Part shown: positions 31,975-54,896 of the stretch, one piece after another
Numbering within the stretch: the first letter of the stretch is position 1
How the letters are laid out: each line of letters starts with the position of its first letter
From: a virus
Taxonomy: Duplodnaviria > Heunggongvirae > Uroviricota > Caudoviricetes
DNA: 64,000 nucleotides
Reading direction: 5' to 3' (one strand)
IMG/VR virus record: IMGVR_UViG_3300038443_000660
Location: 130,082 to 194,081 of that record
Position numbers and translations under genes: made by a program
Notes under the pieces: generated by a model
Databases searched by the model: none
What the model saw: only the letters and a program-made list of their open reading frames with translations
What the model was told of the DNA's origin: nothing

Positions 31975-33471
31975 ATTAGTAATACAAAGCCTATTGTAAA
32001 TATAGATTACGTAAATTATTTTGAGATAAAGATTACATCTGAACTTTCCATAGAAAAAGAACTATGGGAATTCTTTACGTTCATGGTTCCCGGTGCTGTT
32101 CATTCTCCAAAGTACAAAGCAAAAGTTTGGGACGGAAAAAAACATCTCTATAACTTTAGAACCAAACGATTGTATTTTGGTCTGAAAGAACACGTCAAAA
32201 AGTTCTGTGAAGATCGGGACTATGAGTGTGTTGTTCATTTTGATGATTCAGATGACCCTTGTTCAATTAAGGAAATTGAAGACTTTGCCAAGACGCTAAA
32301 TCTGCCCGATGGTATTGAATTGCGTGATTATCAATTGGCGATGATTGCCCATGCCGTTCGTCAAAAAAGAATGATTGCCATATCAGCGGTGAATTCGGGA
32401 AAGTCGATTTCTCAATACATTCTATTACGGTATCTGAACAAAAAGTCTATACTTATCGTCCCTTCTAAACAGCTTGTCAAGCAGATGTATGATGATTTCT
32501 CTGCTTATTCAAAAAATGACCCTAATTGGAATGTGGACGAGAAATGTTCACAGATTATGGAAGGATTTTCAAAAGATAATAGAAGTCATCGAATACAAAT
32601 TACGACTTGGCAGTCATTACTAAATCAACCGAAAGAATGGTTCAAAGAATATCGTGTAGTTTTGGTTGATGAAGTACATGAGGCCAAAGGTCAAGCCATG
32701 AATGATATCATGGACAAAAACAATGCTCCATATCGTATTGGTTTCACTGGTACAATGGATGATACCCAACTTCATGAACTTGTATTGACTGGTTTATTCG
32801 GCAGGCCAAAAACATTCATCCGCAATCGTGAAATGATTGAACGGAAGCTTTCATCTGATATTGATATCAAGGTAATTGTTCTTAAGCACCCGGAAGAAGC
32901 TAAGAAATTTTTAGCTAAAAAAGCGAATAAGAATTACCCAACAGAAATCAAGTATATCATTGAAAATGAAGACCGTAACAAGTTTATTTCAAATCTTGCT
33001 CTGTCATTATCCGGTAACGTTTTGATATTCTATAATTATGTTGACAAACATGGAAAAGTATTGTATGATGTTATAGTAAATAACAATACAGACAACAAGA
33101 AAATTCATTTTGTTTCTGGCGATGTTTCACTTGATGATCGTGAAGATATCAAGACGGCTATGAACACAAAAAGAAACAATATTACAGTTGCTTCTTTTGG
33201 TACATTCTATCGAGGAATATCTATTACAAATATTGATTACATGATTCTGGCATCACCTGTCAAATCTCAAAACAGAATAGGTCAATCCATAGGTCGTGGC
33301 CTAAGACGAGGTAAGGAAAAGGACCATGTGACACTTTTCGACATTGCTGATGATATTACTACACCAACTAGAAAAAACCATACATTCAGACATTTGGAAG
33401 ACAGGTTAAGACTGTATACCAAGGAAGGTTTCAAATTCAAAATTTTCAAGACGAAACTAAAGAAGACTTAA
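31975..33471 (+). CDS. uvsW: SF2 helicase UvsW (proposed ATT start)
   Basis: WDGK, LRDYQ, GKS, DEVH, QSIGRGLR; the conserved N-terminal region extends upstream of ATG 32083. Confidence 0.9.
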   Translation: MSNTKPIVNIDYVNYFEIKITSELSIEKELWEFFTFMVPGAVHSPKYKAKVWDGKKHLYNFRTKRLYFGLKEHVKKFCEDRDYECVVHFDDSDDPCSIKEIEDFAKTLNLPDGIELRDYQLAMIAHAVRQKRMIAISAVNSGKSISQYILLRYLNKKSILIVPSKQLVKQMYDDFSAYSKNDPNWNVDEKCSQIMEGFSKDNRSHRIQITTWQSLLNQPKEWFKEYRVVLVDEVHEAKGQAMNDIMDKNNAPYRIGFTGTMDDTQLHELVLTGLFGRPKTFIRNREMIERKLSSDIDIKVIVLKHPEEAKKFLAKKANKNYPTEIKYIIENEDRNKFISNLALSLSGNVLIFYNYVDKHGKVLYDVIVNNNTDNKKIHFVSGDVSLDDREDIKTAMNTKRNNITVASFGTFYRGISITNIDYMILASPVKSQNRIGQSIGRGLRRGKEKDHVTLFDIADDITTPTRKNHTFRHLEDRLRLYTKEGFKFKIFKTKLKKT

Positions 33472-33503
33472 ATAATGATTCTTATGTTCGATACATAAGA
33501 TTA

Positions 33504-33812
33504 ATGAGTGGTGGAGATATGATAGGTATGATGATAGGTGAGACAAAAACATCAATAACATTATCATATGCCATGGATATGTACACTGCGGATAACGGCG
33601 ATTCACTAGTCATAAGTTTTCAATCGACCATTCCATTCGGTTTACGACAAGATATTACTATAAAGAAAAACAATATAATATTCATGACTGAACCTAACGA
33701 ATTTTTGTATGATTTATACATGCATAAATCGCATGAAGCTTTGGATATACTTACTGATATGGTGAATAAAGTAGATAAACAAAAAGAATTAAAGAACAAG
33801 AGGCTAAACTGA
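33504..33812 (+). CDS. Sm-like conserved protein between uvsW and gp55 (true start may be upstream)
   Basis: IRLMSGGDMIG resembles the IKL.SGE.II N-terminus of this family. Confidence 0.6.
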   Translation: MSGGDMIGMMIGETKTSITLSYAMDMYTADNGDSLVISFQSTIPFGLRQDITIKKNNIIFMTEPNEFLYDLYMHKSHEALDILTDMVNKVDKQKELKNKRLN

Positions 33813-47863: not shown

Positions 47864-48679
47864 TTAGCTAAGAAGCAGCGTGGAACCATAGCCATTATGG
47901 GCAAGTGGCCGAGAGAGATTAACCTTGCTACCTGCATCGGCACCAGCGGTTCGACCACCAATTGCATTCGCCTTCGACTTATTCTGGACCTTGTACAGTT
48001 TTGGTCCATGAAGCTTCAATTGCTCGTCAACAAAATCTTTCTTGGCGAGTGAAATCATTGCCGTTCCGGTAGTCTGTTTTGCTACCTTGGCAGCAGCTTC
48101 ATCAGACATTCCCAACATGCGTTCCTTTAGCTGTTCGGCGTGATAATCAGCAGCTTTCTTTTCGGCTACCAATCGCTCAATCGTCATTTCGTCAAGCCGT
48201 TCTGAAATCCGAGCGGCCATACCGTTGTAGAAGGAAAACGTCTGCCGCCTCTTATAAGCCGACATTTTATAAACGTCTGTCTGCTTGAATTCATCAACCG
48301 CCCGGTTAGCAGCGGATTTAATCAAGCCCGATAGATAAACGGCCATCTGCACATCCGGCTCAAGTCCGAAAAACATGAGTCGGATACCACCGATATATCG
48401 AGTGCGGTTCTGCCAGCAACGAACCTGACAAAATTTGGCTACTGCCTGTGCCGTCGAAAATGAGACAGAACGATGCTTGGATTCCGTATCAAATTCGTGG
48501 GTGACGCACTTTTCCTGCCGTACAGTCACTTCGTCCATGGTCAGATTGAAGCGGTCGAGAAGCGTTCCAATCATCTTGGATGCAGCGAAGAATTCGTTTT
48601 CCGTGCAACCATTCTCGATGGTCTTTGACGAAAGAGCCAAAATCTTTCGCTTGGCGGCTTCTAGTTCACGTTCCTGCAT
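47864..48679 (-). CDS. DUF2786-domain protein
   Basis: KI.AL..K....G.TE.E...A......L...NL N-terminal motif. Confidence 0.75.
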   Translation of the reverse strand: MQERELEAAKRKILALSSKTIENGCTENEFFAASKMIGTLLDRFNLTMDEVTVRQEKCVTHEFDTESKHRSVSFSTAQAVAKFCQVRCWQNRTRYIGGIRLMFFGLEPDVQMAVYLSGLIKSAANRAVDEFKQTDVYKMSAYKRRQTFSFYNGMAARISERLDEMTIERLVAEKKAADYHAEQLKERMLGMSDEAAAKVAKQTTGTAMISLAKKDFVDEQLKLHGPKLYKVQNKSKANAIGGRTAGADAGSKVNLSRPLAHNGYGSTLLLS

Positions 48680-48738: not shown

Positions 48739-49194
48739 TTAATAATAGAAATTTCCATCATCGGTTATCACTGGCTTCATGAACTTCTGAAATTTCACAC
48801 CTTCCTTTGCGGCGGAAAACCAGAGATAGTATCTGTCGGCGTTCATGAACTTAATCATAAGTTCCATGTACATGCCAACGAAACCGGGGCCATGATGCAA
48901 CCCGTTGTCATGAATATTTCTAGTCATAGAATGAGCCAATTCGTGTAGAATTGTCTGTTGTGTCGTATTCTCATTTTTGGGGAAAAACACAGAGAGACGA
49001 TTCGCTTCACCCAAATTTTGATTTTTGCCGTGCATGGCTTCGACGGCTGGTGGATACTTCAATCCCATTTCTGACCAAACGTGGTCCACGTACTCTTGAA
49101 TTTCCTTAAATGAGAACGTTTTCGGTGACTTGAACAGATGATTACCGACTCGCTGTTCCCAATCGTAAACTTTCTGTTTTTGGCTGTCTCGCAT
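48739..49194 (-). CDS. SprT/Rv0185-like HExxH metallohydrolase
   Basis: RDSQK.KVY.WE, ILHELAH, HGPGF. Confidence 0.75.
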   Translation of the reverse strand: MRDSQKQKVYDWEQRVGNHLFKSPKTFSFKEIQEYVDHVWSEMGLKYPPAVEAMHGKNQNLGEANRLSVFFPKNENTTQQTILHELAHSMTRNIHDNGLHHGPGFVGMYMELMIKFMNADRYYLWFSAAKEGVKFQKFMKPVITDDGNFYY

Positions 49195-49220
49195 TTGTAT
49201 CTTGTCCTATATTCATCAAC

Positions 49221-49249
49221 AATATATAGCATCTATAGAAAATGTCAAC
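49221..49249 (-). promoter_or_regulatory. sigma70-type promoter
   Basis: GTTGAC-N17-TATATT. Confidence 0.75.
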
Positions 49250-49273
49250 CCACAAAATTCAACTCAATTTTCA

Positions 49274-49302
49274 TTGACACAACTATAAATATGGGGTAAT
49301 GT
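49274..49302 (+). promoter_or_regulatory. sigma70-type promoter for gp43 with nested late motif
   Basis: TTGACA-N17-TAATGT; TATAAATA at 49284-49291. Confidence 0.7.
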
Positions 49303-49335
49303 ACATGAAACAACTACAAGTGCAGGCTTTAAATC

Positions 49336-51891
49336 ATTACAGAATTTTATACTAAAATTGAACAACAGTTCAATACAGTTTTCATTCGTGGCTACAGAAA
49401 CGGCCAATCCTTTCAAGAAAAAGTTCATTTTGAACCTTCGCTGTATATACCACATATTGGTATGGATACGGTACATGAGTCGATTGATGGCATCAAGTTA
49501 GCCCCAAAGAAGTTTGATTCCATTTCTGATGCCAGATCATTCATGGATAGAATGAACCGGGCACCGAATTTCACGCTCTATGGTCAACATAATTGGGTTA
49601 ATCAGTTCATTCATGAACGATACCCGAATGAAATTGATTACGATGATTCTTTAATCAAAATTGGTTACATCGATATTGAAACGGATTCGGAGACAGGTTT
49701 TCCGAATGTGATGGAAGCCGACAAAGAAATCAACGCAATTACGCTGATTGTTAATGGAGAATGTTATTGTTGGGGATTGAAACCCGTCAATGTTCCTGAT
49801 GGTGTGAAGTATTTCCATTTTGAAACTGAAATGGAATTGTTACAACATTTTGTCAGAATTTGGGAACAGTTAAAACTTGATGCTATTTCCGGCTGGAATA
49901 GTCAAGGCTTCGACATGGCCTATATTGTTCGAAGGCTTACTCGTATTTTTTCTATGGAAAAGGCCAAGAGATTGTCGGTGTGGGGTATTGTAAAGCCACG
50001 TCTGATGAAATCATATCGTGGTACAGATATTGAAGTATTTGATATCTTTGGTTTAATTGACCTTGACTATCTTCCTGCTTTCAAAAAATTTCGCCCGCCG
50101 TCTCTGAATCCTGACGACAACCGACTAGATACGATTGCACATGTCGTATTAGGCGAAAAGAAACTGGACTATTCCGAATATGGTTCTTTGAGAAAGTTAT
50201 ATCGTGAAAATCCACAGCTTTTCTATGAATATAACATCAAGGATACTAAACTTGTTCAACGAATGGAAGATAAGTTGAACATAATTAAGCTAATGTTCAA
50301 CATGGCTTATTCTGCTAAGGTAAATATACAGGATTGTTATAGACCAACCGCCGTTTGGGACTCAATTATCTATGGATATTTATTTAACAAAAATAAAATT
50401 CCACATATTCCAAAAGGATATGAGGCATCAACTGGTCAATTTACTGGTGCATTGGTTAAAGAGCCACCTATCGGCAGATACAAGTGGGTGCAGGGATTTG
50501 ACCTGACATCATTGTATCCGTCAATATTTTTGCAAACAAATATCGGTCCAGATACTATTCGAGATTCTTTTGACGTTGATTTGAATTCTCTGATTGATGG
50601 TAAACCACATGGTTACGAGCAATATCTGAAAGATAATAATCTTTCAATGTCAGCATCTGGTGTAACTTTTACTAAGGATTTTACATCTTTCATTGTTGAG
50701 ATTGTTCAGATGTTTTTTGATAAAAGACAGATGTTCAAGAAAAAAATGCTCGCCGCCAAGAAAGACTTAGAAGCAGTTAAAGCTAAAACTCATACACATA
50801 AAACCAAACAAGATGAATTGGATATCAAAAAACATTCTGGTGACGTAATCAAATACGATATTTATCAGCAGAATACCAAGATTTTGATTAATGCATTCTA
50901 TGGTGCATCTGGTAATGAAGGTTTTCGTTATTTCGACCTTAGAATTGCAGAATCTATTACAAAATTTGGTCAAGTTATCATTAAGACTGGTGAAAGGGCT
51001 ATCAATAAATATCTGAACAAAATAACTGGTCTTGATTTGGATTGGATTGTGGCTTCGGATACTGACTCATTGATTATAAATCTTGAACCGTTAATCCGTC
51101 ATGTGAAGCTGATGGATAGGCCGAATGATAAAATTGTCGAGTTTATTGTTAAGTTTGGTACTGAAAAAATTCAACCCGTTTTGGATAAGGCGTTCCGTGA
51201 ACTTGGCGACAAGATGAACTCTTTCCAACATAAACTTCACATGAAACAAGAAAAGGTGTGTTCTGATTTAGTTATCATGAGAAAGAAGCGATATCTTTAC
51301 TATGTGTTGGCAAACGAAGGTGTAGTGTATGATGAACCAAAGATTGAAATCACCGGTCTAGAAGCTGTCAGAACGGTTGTTCCTGAATTTTGCCGTAACA
51401 AATTGAAAGAATATTATAAGCTTGTATTGACCGGTTCAGAAGCAGAAATGCAGTCATTTGTTGATAAAGTAAGAGATGATTTCTTCCATAAGAAATTTGA
51501 TGAAATTGCTTCGCCAAAAGGTTGTAAAGGTTTGACTAAGTATGGTGATTCTACGCTGATTTATAGACATGAAAAGGGTGCGGCTGTACCGATACATACC
51601 AGAGCGGCGCTTCTGTATAATCATTATCTACGCAAAATGAATTTGGACACACAGTATGAAACTATTCTAGAAGGTGAAAAGATTAAATTTTGCTATCTTA
51701 AGATGCCAAATCCTATCGGTGAGAATGTCATCGCCGCACCAAGAATGTTGCCACCAGAAATGGGTTTGGATGAATACATAGACTATGAAACTCAATTTCA
51801 AAAGACCTTTCTTGCTCCAATCGATGCTATGAATACTGTAGTTGGTTGGGAAAAAGAAACAAGAACTACATTAGAAGGACTATTTGTATAA
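49336..51891 (+). CDS. gp43: family B DNA polymerase (proposed ATT start)
   Basis: IDIET, GWNS..FD, FDLTSLYPS, KILINA.YG, SDTDS; N-terminal xEFY homology lies upstream of ATG 49462. Confidence 0.95.
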   Translation: MTEFYTKIEQQFNTVFIRGYRNGQSFQEKVHFEPSLYIPHIGMDTVHESIDGIKLAPKKFDSISDARSFMDRMNRAPNFTLYGQHNWVNQFIHERYPNEIDYDDSLIKIGYIDIETDSETGFPNVMEADKEINAITLIVNGECYCWGLKPVNVPDGVKYFHFETEMELLQHFVRIWEQLKLDAISGWNSQGFDMAYIVRRLTRIFSMEKAKRLSVWGIVKPRLMKSYRGTDIEVFDIFGLIDLDYLPAFKKFRPPSLNPDDNRLDTIAHVVLGEKKLDYSEYGSLRKLYRENPQLFYEYNIKDTKLVQRMEDKLNIIKLMFNMAYSAKVNIQDCYRPTAVWDSIIYGYLFNKNKIPHIPKGYEASTGQFTGALVKEPPIGRYKWVQGFDLTSLYPSIFLQTNIGPDTIRDSFDVDLNSLIDGKPHGYEQYLKDNNLSMSASGVTFTKDFTSFIVEIVQMFFDKRQMFKKKMLAAKKDLEAVKAKTHTHKTKQDELDIKKHSGDVIKYDIYQQNTKILINAFYGASGNEGFRYFDLRIAESITKFGQVIIKTGERAINKYLNKITGLDLDWIVASDTDSLIINLEPLIRHVKLMDRPNDKIVEFIVKFGTEKIQPVLDKAFRELGDKMNSFQHKLHMKQEKVCSDLVIMRKKRYLYYVLANEGVVYDEPKIEITGLEAVRTVVPEFCRNKLKEYYKLVLTGSEAEMQSFVDKVRDDFFHKKFDEIASPKGCKGLTKYGDSTLIYRHEKGAAVPIHTRAALLYNHYLRKMNLDTQYETILEGEKIKFCYLKMPNPIGENVIAAPRMLPPEMGLDEYIDYETQFQKTFLAPIDAMNTVVGWEKETRTTLEGLFV

Positions 51892-52256: not shown

Positions 52257-53369
52257 ATGAAAGACAAAGCATTTTTAAAGCTTCTAAAAGAAGCTAATCC
52301 AGATTATGATGGCGATTCTGTCACCACAAAAGAATTCATTGATACTGGTTCGTATATTCTTAACGCCGCTATTTCTACTTCACTTTACGGCGGGTTTCCG
52401 AGCAATAGAATATCCGTAGTTCACTCTAAGGCGGGTGTTGGTAAAAGTTATTTTTGCATGTCGGCAGTGAAGACTACGTTGGATAAAAATCCAGATGCCC
52501 AAGCGTTATATTTTGACACTGAATATGCTATTGATGATGAATTCTTGCTCAAAAGAGATATTGACCCTGACAGAGTGCATGTCATGCAGCCTGATACAAT
52601 TGAAGATTTTAAAACGATTTCATTAAAATTTTTACAATCATATCAAGATTTAGAACCATCCAAACAGAAAAAGATGATTATGGTTCTTGATTCTCTTGGA
52701 ATGCTTCCATCTATCAAGGAAGATGAAGATTCCCAAAAGGGTAAACATGTCAGAGACATGACTAAACAGCAAGGCGTTCGCTCATTGTTTAGAACAATTA
52801 CCCAAAAGCTTGGTAAAGTAGACATTCCGTTTATCGTAGCAAGTCATTCATATACGGACATCATGTCTTATGGGGCACCACAAAAAATGTCTGGCGGCGG
52901 CGGACTGGAATATGCCGCTTCCGTTATTCTTGCTCTGTCTAAGGCAAAAGATACAGAAGAAGTCAACGTGAAAGGCAAAAAGGTTAAGATTCATGATGGT
53001 AATATTATTACCGTAAAGGTTGATAAATCAAGATTTTCACGAGAAGGCCGAGTTGTTAAAACTAAACTTAACTTCAAAGATGGTATTGATCGTTATTATG
53101 GGCTTCTCCCTCTAGCTTCTCAATATGAAATCATCAAGAAAGTTTCGACACAATACGAAATGCCTGATGGTTCCAAACATTTTGAAAAGAATATCGTAGC
53201 CGATCCACAAAAATATTTTACAAAAGATATTTTGGATAAATTGGAAGAAGCGGCCAAGATACATTTCAGTTTAGGGTCAACGAGTCATGATATTGTGTTG
53301 ACAGATGAAGCTGAAATCGATAGTATAGAAGATGATGAAGCGGTAGATGGAAATGGTGTAGAAGAATAA
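52257..53369 (+). CDS. uvsX: RecA-like recombinase
   Basis: DTGSYILNA, GVGKS, YFDTE, LDSLG.L, KMSGGGG.EYAAS. Confidence 0.92.
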   Translation: MKDKAFLKLLKEANPDYDGDSVTTKEFIDTGSYILNAAISTSLYGGFPSNRISVVHSKAGVGKSYFCMSAVKTTLDKNPDAQALYFDTEYAIDDEFLLKRDIDPDRVHVMQPDTIEDFKTISLKFLQSYQDLEPSKQKKMIMVLDSLGMLPSIKEDEDSQKGKHVRDMTKQQGVRSLFRTITQKLGKVDIPFIVASHSYTDIMSYGAPQKMSGGGGLEYAASVILALSKAKDTEEVNVKGKKVKIHDGNIITVKVDKSRFSREGRVVKTKLNFKDGIDRYYGLLPLASQYEIIKKVSTQYEMPDGSKHFEKNIVADPQKYFTKDILDKLEEAAKIHFSLGSTSHDIVLTDEAEIDSIEDDEAVDGNGVEE

Positions 53370-53471: not shown

Positions 53472-54896
53472 TTGCAATTAACAGAAATTATTATCAAAAA
53501 TCTTATGGAAAACGATGACTATATGCGACGAGTCATGCCTTTCCTTAAATCCGAATACTTTACAGGTTCTGAAAAAGTTATATTTGACCATATCAAGAAA
53601 TATACTGATACTTACAACAATATGCCTACAATTGAGGCATTAATGATTGAAATGTCTGACGACAATACAATTGTTGAAGACACATTTGAAGATATTGACA
53701 AATCTATATCAAACATCAAAGAAACAGCAAAATCTATTGATTTACCATGGCTTATCACGACAACTGAAAAGTTCTGTAAGGACAGGGCATTAGAAATTGC
53801 ACTTCAAGAATCAATCATGATTTTTGAAGGGAAATCCAAAAAGCACGGCAAAGGTGCTATTCCTGATATCCTGTCAAAAGCTTTGGCAATCGGTTTTGAC
53901 ACAACTGTTGGTCATGATTACTTCGAAAATTCAGATGAACGATACGAGTATTATCATCGAAAAGAAGAAAAGATTGCGACCGGTATTGAGTTTCTTGACA
54001 AAGTTACTAAAGGCGGATTTTCCAAGAAGACCTTGAACCTATTCATTGCCGGTACAAATGCTGGTAAATCTTTGATGATGGTGAATATTGCGGCCAATAT
54101 GTTGAAAGCCGGTAATAACGTTTTGTATATCACTGGTGAGATGGCAGAAGAAGAAATTGCCAAGCGTGTTGATGCTAACATGCTCGATATCGAAATAAAA
54201 GATTTGCCGATTATTGCCGAATCTATGTTCACAAAGAGAATTGAAAATCTAAAGAACAAGACAAGGGGCAAGCTGATTATCAAGGAATATCCTACGTCAT
54301 CGGCTTCCATTAATCATTTTCGAGCATTACTAAACGAATTATTGCTAAAAAAGCATTTTGTTCCTGATGTTATATTCGTTGATTATCTGAACATCTTTAT
54401 TTCTACGAGGTTTAAAGATGGAAATGTTTCAAATACTAACACGTATTACAAAGCGATTTCAGAAGAATTACGTGGGCTTGGTGTTGAAATGAACATTCCG
54501 ATTGTATCGGCGTCACAGTTAAATCGCAGTGGATTTCAGGATTCAAATCCGGGAATGGAATCAACATCAGAAGCATTTGGTATTAATTTCGTTGCAGATT
54601 TTGTTGCCGCAATGGTTTATTCAGAAGAATTAGCGCAACAAAACCGGTTGTTAATCAAGCAATTAAAGTCAAGATATGATAATAAAACATTATATCCTAT
54701 GTTCTTTGTCGGTGTGGATATGAAGAAAATGAGATATTTCGACCTTACTGACCCTCTCGATGGTATCCATAACATTGGTGCAGCGGTGCAACCACCGCCT
54801 ATTGGAAAACATGGTGGTTTGCAAAATAAATCTAGTTTACCCCTACCATCCACACAAACAAATACTGGCACAGCACAAGTAACATTTAATTCTTAA
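53472..54896 (+). CDS. gp41: replicative helicase
   Basis: AGTNAGKS, ITGEM, IFVDYLN, SQLNRSG, LKSRY. Confidence 0.93.
   Translation: MQLTEIIIKNLMENDDYMRRVMPFLKSEYFTGSEKVIFDHIKKYTDTYNNMPTIEALMIEMSDDNTIVEDTFEDIDKSISNIKETAKSIDLPWLITTTEKFCKDRALEIALQESIMIFEGKSKKHGKGAIPDILSKALAIGFDTTVGHDYFENSDERYEYYHRKEEKIATGIEFLDKVTKGGFSKKTLNLFIAGTNAGKSLMMVNIAANMLKAGNNVLYITGEMAEEEIAKRVDANMLDIEIKDLPIIAESMFTKRIENLKNKTRGKLIIKEYPTSSASINHFRALLNELLLKKHFVPDVIFVDYLNIFISTRFKDGNVSNTNTYYKAISEELRGLGVEMNIPIVSASQLNRSGFQDSNPGMESTSEAFGINFVADFVAAMVYSEELAQQNRLLIKQLKSRYDNKTLYPMFFVGVDMKKMRYFDLTDPLDGIHNIGAAVQPPPIGKHGGLQNKSSLPLPSTQTNTGTAQVTFNS

Follow-up and report, generated by a model that had tools for sequence, protein, structure and literature searches.

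Translation initiation factor 3 (IF3) discriminates against near-cognate start codons such as AUU, AUA and AUC. In Escherichia coli, initiation at AUA, AUC, AUU or CUG amounts to 1-2% of that at AUG, and infC and pcnB, cellular genes respectively coding for IF3 and poly(A) polymerase I, are confirmed AUU-start genes (bioRxiv 10.1101/063800). Similarly, the GTC start of Streptomyces sigR is repressed by IF3 (PMC5472188). Initiation is also the step at which synthesis of the phage T4 replicative DNA polymerase is limited, its gene 43 combining an AUG with an upstream RNA hairpin bound by its own product, gp43. Here we analyse a T4-type DNA polymerase gene within a stretch of 64,000 nucleotides (the window), which comprises bases 130082-194081 of the IMG/VR virus record IMGVR_UViG_3300038443_000660, a 242,456-bp sequence with direct terminal repeats from an uncultured T4-like phage. 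This gene (49336..51891, plus strand, 851 codons and stop) has no canonical start codon at its conserved beginning, and comparison with its relatives makes it almost certain that it begins at a weak ATT, a conserved near-cognate AUU/AUA start that probably throttles translation.

As in infC and pcnB, an AUU replaces the AUG at a conserved N-terminus behind a Shine-Dalgarno (SD) element, in a gene whose protein would be needed at low dose, and the codon is kept among orthologues though only one mutation away from AUG. On the contrary, those are cellular genes, while here the codon belongs to phage genes, for the replicative polymerase, for a helicase and for a small open reading frame (ORF); moreover, AUU alternates with AUA among the phage relatives, and no feedback loop comparable to that of IF3 acting on infC is evident in the phage. 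With the gene 43 operators of T4, RB69 and RB49 the locus shares the gene and presumably the need, with polymerase synthesis being limited at initiation. However, it displays a short leader without a hairpin and a weak start codon in place of the T4 AUG and operator, and where the T4 control is a feedback, that exerted by a weak start would be constitutive. Finally, sigR provides a non-canonical start used as a regulatory device dependent on IF3 proofreading, although codon, organism and gene class differ, and IF3 dependence is demonstrated for sigR and only extrapolated to the phage polymerase.

The product is a family B polymerase of the T4 gp43 type. Its translation, whose residues are numbered here from ATC 49333 (frame 49333 to 51891), matches Pfam families PF00136 (DNA_pol_B) and PF03104 (DNA_pol_B_exo1), thus containing polymerase and 3'-5' exonuclease domains, and the T4 and RB69 polymerases are its closest solved structures (E about 1e-110). 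The DIE, SLYPS, KxxxNxxYG and DTDS motifs of the type are all present, with D114-I115-E116 (DIE, Exo I), S393-L394-Y395-P396 (SLYPS, motif A) and D576-T577-D578-S579 (DTDS, motif C) being invariant across the polymerase alignment. The N-terminal (M)xEFY strand that characterizes T4 gp43-type enzymes is likewise present. The best protein matches in cultured phages are cyanophage gp43 proteins, with 39% identity and alignments running from residue 1-2, while a DNA search against cultured phages returned no match.

On its 5' side the polymerase frame is closed by an in-frame TAA (49330..49332, plus strand, as are all features below unless otherwise indicated), followed by ATC 49333, ATT 49336, ACA, GAA, TTT and TAT. 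The earliest in-frame ATG, GTG or TTG is ATG 49462 (49462..49464), exactly 42 codons past ATT 49336, and it is here that gene finders place the start, so that the database protein, P0002, has 809 aa. Direct reading of the letters thereby bore out the original prediction as to both the start-less interval between TAA 49330-32 and 49462 and an AGG placed 9 nt before ATT 49336. That prediction had also held that the 42 codons match the beginning of T4 gp43; residues 2-135 of the T4 polymerase (PDB 9ea3_A) indeed align with translation residues 3-138 (domain i-E-value 4.7e-12). T4 residue 2 (KEFY) pairs with translation residue 3 (TEFY), and T4 Met1 therefore falls on ATT 49336. Since a stop occupies 49330-32 and homology begins at residue 2-3, the start is limited to the ATC-ATT pair (49333..49338), whose two codons are the sole possible initiation sites, with ATT 49336, aligned with T4 gp43 Met1 and with the ATT/ATA of the relatives, as the likely one. 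The SD-like AGG (49324..49326) is separated by 9 nt from ATT 49336 and by 6 nt from ATC 49333, so that an isoleucine-type near-cognate codon (AUA, AUC or AUU; AUH hereafter) is found within working distance of an SD element, as it is in the three relatives described next. A start-less run of 42 codons is not in itself rare, being expected by chance with a probability of roughly 0.1-0.2; it is in its conservation as coding sequence that the run goes beyond chance.

Three relatives with DNA were found in IMG/VR, namely G001 (256 kb, matched identically by a 20-kb fragment from a second sample), G002 (153 kb) and G003 (196 kb), whose polymerases are 59-63% identical to that of the window. Their start sites consist of GGAG, 7 nt and, at the same place as ATT 49336, an ATT in G001, an ATA in G002 and an ATA-ATT in G003. 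From the upstream stop to the FYTK motif none of the three contains an in-frame ATG, GTG or TTG, and their earliest downstream canonical in-frame codons occupy unrelated positions (codons 131, 57 and 26 in G001, G002 and G003, respectively). The non-canonical polymerase start is thus kept among orthologues in all four genomes with DNA, representing three deep lineages. At 4-fold sites the third bases of the window and of the relatives agree at a level of 0.32-0.33, where composition would give about 0.25; synonymous sites are thus near saturation, and a one-base change to ATG has had ample time to occur. Between G001 and G003 the start-less segment shows 3, 3 and 16 differences at codon positions 1, 2 and 3, respectively, with 29 of 34 residues identical, and this third-position bias leads to the segment being read as translated, coding sequence. 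Altogether, the comparative evidence strongly supports the non-AUG start, at AUU, that had been proposed for this replicative polymerase.

More distant genes behave differently. In an outgroup of 164 gp43 loci, drawn from viral and metagenome contigs and 30-42% identical, the start is ATG in 162 and TTG in 2, in each case 1-5 codons 5' of the FYT motif, and not one of them is without a start. Canonical starts were also read in Sinorhizobium phage phiN3, TTG for the polymerase and ATG for uvsW. A maximum-likelihood polymerase tree unites the start-less genes in a single clade (98/98 support), to which the trait is confined and whose sister group is P0008/P0009, P0008 having a Met start in the protein collection. 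Four members of the clade are start-less by DNA, while four were inferred from truncated or over-extended gene calls. A single loss of the ATG in the ancestor of the clade, later retained, would be the simplest history. Because no normal start codon exists at the conserved beginning, gene finders shorten the polymerase protein. Five calls, including the window's own (P0002, together with P0004, P0005, P0006 and P0007, the last one from the contig of G002), are without 33-60 residues of the N-terminal domain, and P0003 carries a spurious extension, its call running through an apparent ...RS-R-I-I-TFFYTK. All polymerase calls of this clade in the large protein collection hence appear to be wrong at the N-terminus. 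Scans of viral contigs with P0005, P0003, P0008 and P0122, as well as of metagenome and genome contigs, recovered only known loci or outgroup genes, and the start-less clade is without a cultured member.

The trait extends beyond the polymerase. The genome was screened over 222 ORFs with homologues in the relatives, looking for homology reaching at least 10 codons 5' of the earliest canonical start, a design blind to any AUH start followed by an in-frame canonical codon within about 10 codons. Three real cases emerged, the polymerase, a UvsW-type helicase and a small phrog_527 ORF, and screens starting from G001 and from G003 returned the same three. Considering that 222 conserved ORFs gave these three cases only, the trait is gene-specific and does not reflect a general relaxation of start-codon use. 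Among 126 conserved ORFs of the genome, the earliest canonical codon is ATG in 99, TTG in 20 and GTG in 7. Other candidates were discarded: o166, o222 and several more ORFs containing long start-less stretches were recognized as antisense shadows of real genes, and for about twenty further candidates alignment with the relatives revealed canonical starts.

For the UvsW-type helicase (31975..33471), the likely start is ATT 31975, with GGA 8 nt upstream and the earliest ATG at 32083. This ATT is located 2 nt past the TAA (31970-72) with which the upstream gene, taken here to be uvsY, ends. In G001 and G002 the helicase ATT overlaps the upstream stop (TAATT), while in G003 an ATA is placed 10 nt past it; AUH is hence present in all three relatives, and the parallel that had been drawn between the polymerase and uvsW is upheld. 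The TAATT of G001 and G002 has the layout of translational coupling with AUU replacing AUG. As with the polymerase, the uvsW product appears to be cut short by gene finders. The phrog_527 ORF (33435..33812), which overlaps the 3' end of uvsW, likely starts at ATT 33435, 6 nt after AAGGAAGG, an SD-like motif within window positions 33421-33812. Its start is ATA in 3/3 relatives, and in G002 the frame must begin at ATA because a TGA is directly upstream. Whereas only about 30% of the 126 conserved ORFs have a 4-nt SD core in the preceding 18 nt, the three AUH-start genes carry the SD-like motifs AGG (polymerase), GGA (uvsW) and AAGGAAGG (phrog_527 ORF).

The vicinity of uvsW in the relatives also contains a tRNA cluster, Ile(GAU)-Met(CAU)-Leu(UAA), at 155164-156496 in G001, 114845-116138 in G003 and 49042-50164 in G002. 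Its CAU tRNA presents the C1xA72 hallmark of initiators, yet its anticodon stem does not have the three G-C pairs. At 218191-218268, G001 additionally encodes a tRNA with U1-A72 that closely resembles E. coli tRNAfMet. Neither a CAU tRNA with C1xA72 nor a tRNAfMet look-alike occurs in the genome to which the window belongs. That genome does carry, 4.5 kb before the window (G000:C1:125529-125620), a 92-nt tRNA-Ile(UAU) with a long variable arm as called by Aragorn, an odd body for an isoleucine tRNA. Permuted two-piece transfer-messenger RNA (tmRNA) genes occur in G002 (66376-66720, tag ...LAVAA) and G003 (132542-132980, tag ...FAVAA); we take these to be of the alphaproteobacterial type, which would hint at the host group.

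Turning to the transcriptional context of the polymerase, positions 49195-49335 hold divergent promoters arranged back to back between the polymerase gene and two minus-strand genes (48739-49194 and the phrog_421 gene 47864-48679), and the layout in G001 is the same. The promoter for the minus-strand gene 48739-49194 is TTGACA-16-TATATT (49221..49248, minus strand; 11/12 matches). The putative sigma70-type promoter of the polymerase (49274..49302) joins a perfect -35, TTGACA 49274-79, through 17 nt to TAATGT 49297-302, which matches the -10 consensus at 3/6 positions only, and it was not listed by a consensus promoter scan. At the matching place G001 has a near-consensus TTGACT-17-TATAAT, which would leave a leader of about 18 nt. 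As the upstream neighbours lie on the opposite strand and a divergent promoter is present, the polymerase gene is considered to head its own transcription unit. Its 3' neighbours encode a UvsX-like recombinase (52257-53369) and a gp41-like helicase (53472-54896). The predicted leader of the polymerase mRNA, about 20-26 nt, folds into nothing stable. An out-of-frame upstream open reading frame (uORF) of 18 codons overlaps the polymerase start (49299..49355; ATG 49299, second in-frame ATG 49305, stop TAA 49353-55), as had been described before; its placement upstream of the sigma70 transcription start, also part of that description, depends on the promoter with the 3/6 -10 element, whose predicted start near 49309 would exclude both uORF ATGs from the mRNA. 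The uORF is probably no part of the mechanism.

Folding of the start regions predicts a single structure common to all four genomes, a hairpin of 7 bp and a 4-nt loop inside the polymerase coding sequence (49357..49374), at +22 to +39 from the ATT. Comparison of the four genomes reveals one compensatory pair (U-A to C-G) together with an A-U to G-U change, and the EQQF motif encoded by the hairpin is not seen outside the start-less clade. It may resemble the translation-activating stem-loops of early coding regions, though support is thin. The fepA element, in the account of Jagodnik et al. 2017 cited in PMC11979758, is likewise a small stem-loop just 3' of the footprint of the initiating 30S subunit; that one was shown by mutagenesis, whereas the hairpin at 49357-49374 is a prediction with one compensatory change.

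Several other explanations of the start-less beginning were weighed. One is that the polymerase begins at ATG 49462, the preceding 42 codons being an untranslated leader, a proposal with which the database protein P0002 agrees and which draws on the earliest canonical start available. Against it, these 42 codons align with the N-terminus of the solved T4 polymerase and are conserved as protein, their changes being biased to third positions; in addition, no relative has a start matching ATG 49462, the earliest canonical codons being located 26, 57 and 131 codons in, and every one of the 164 outgroup genes starts 1-5 codons ahead of its FYT motif. An N-terminus at Met 49462, foreseen as an outcome that would overturn the non-AUG start, is thus contradicted by conserved coding sequence and by the absence of a conserved downstream start in the relatives, and we regard it as scarcely credible. 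The other outcome foreseen, an indel fusing the uORF to the polymerase frame, fares no better. The uORF does overlap the polymerase start with its frame one base behind, and GGGG precedes its ATG 49305 by 8 nt, so that a sequencing indel or a programmed +1 frameshift, entered from ATG 49299 or 49305, might provide the protein with a Met and a short N-terminal extension. Nevertheless, the start-less state is shared by four independent assemblies, and G001, G002 and G003, assembled separately, have no ATG or GTG between promoter and start, and hence no uORF there to fuse. Moreover, no slippery site exists in 49333-49352, the extension would exceed that of any of the 164 outgroup genes, and the predicted transcription start falls downstream of both uORF ATGs. 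A +1 frameshift of the prfB kind was also considered and rejected, as its CTT-TAA is in the polymerase frame and not in that of the uORF and so cannot join the two. Judging from the sequences, whether the Met 49462 start, a sequencing indel or a uORF frameshift is invoked, the explanation is very unlikely.

Two further proposals accept the AUH starts and differ in what governs them. In one, a dedicated factor (a phage initiator-like tRNA, an IF3-relaxing protein or a hairpin enhancer) would make these starts efficient, turning them into a switchable regulon and not a plain throttle. In its favor, the trait is common to exactly three replication or recombination genes, the clade-specific hairpin at +22 to +39 could act as a start-site enhancer, and a CAU tRNA bearing C1xA72, the initiator hallmark, is encoded beside uvsY/uvsW in the relatives. 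However, neither such an initiator-like tRNA nor a homologue of IF3 or IF1 was found in the window's own genome, no initiator-like tRNA body bears an anticodon matching AUU or AUA, and the hairpin depends on a single compensatory change and has no obvious uvsW counterpart by eye; we accordingly hold this possibility to be unlikely. In the other, the weak start would form part of a T4-style autogenous control, with gp43 repressing translation through its own leader, as the polymerases of T4, RB69 and RB49 do on their mRNAs through an operator hairpin overlapping the ribosome-binding site (RBS), albeit some T4-related polymerases do not autoregulate (PMC3014915). The four predicted leaders, of about 18-26 nt, contain no stable hairpin and none of the T4 type (UAAC/UAAA-type loop overlapping the RBS), and an Rfam search of the polymerase start region gave no family match. 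The autoregulated start that had been suggested as an option thereby finds no support in a leader of about 20-26 nt, and we deem it quite improbable. Somewhat apart stands the idea that the polymerase, UvsW and the phrog_527 ORF constitute a conserved AUH-start regulon, co-gated by initiation fidelity through the availability of IF3, a phage initiator-like tRNA or some other factor, with the hairpin as a start-site enhancer. We consider this a doubtful, speculative extension; if it were true, start-codon proofreading would time phage replication and recombination in the manner of a switch.

With these proposals set aside, the near-cognate start acting as a throttle is the explanation we favor. 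According to it, the polymerase would initiate at an isoleucine-type near-cognate codon, AUU 49336 being the most likely choice and AUC 49333 a less likely one, with the ordinary initiator tRNA reading the AUH codon, placed by an SD element that precedes it by 6-9 nt in a short leader without structure, and N-formylmethionine (fMet) as the first residue. The weak codon would operate as a built-in throttle, keeping the polymerase scarce despite a seemingly strong early promoter, and the same device would act on the UvsW helicase, likewise kept scarce, and on the small ORF after it. The trait would have arisen once in the ancestor of the phage clade and been maintained by selection, for which dosage control may be the reason. 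By analogy with the bacterial genes, we infer that output is low and that the AUH starts of this phage are sensitive to IF3.

Some aspects weigh against this explanation. Low output and IF3 dependence are extrapolated to this phage from E. coli, and the evidence comes from the sequences of an uncultured phage and its relatives. Within the window itself, the AGG is a weaker SD than those of the relatives, ATC 49333 fits the SD spacing equally well, and the -10 element of the polymerase promoter is poor. Furthermore, the DNA at hand comes from only three deep lineages, the four further clade members being judged from their gene calls.

Full-text literature searches on AUU/ATT start codons in phages retrieved no paper describing one on a phage DNA polymerase. 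Near-cognate starts as such are known from infC and pcnB; their occurrence here on a phage polymerase is useful for annotation and makes this gene a candidate for further study. It would represent a case, maintained by evolution, of a phage setting the dose of its replicative polymerase and of its recombination helicase by means of a weak start codon, and not through RNA-operator feedback of the T4 style.

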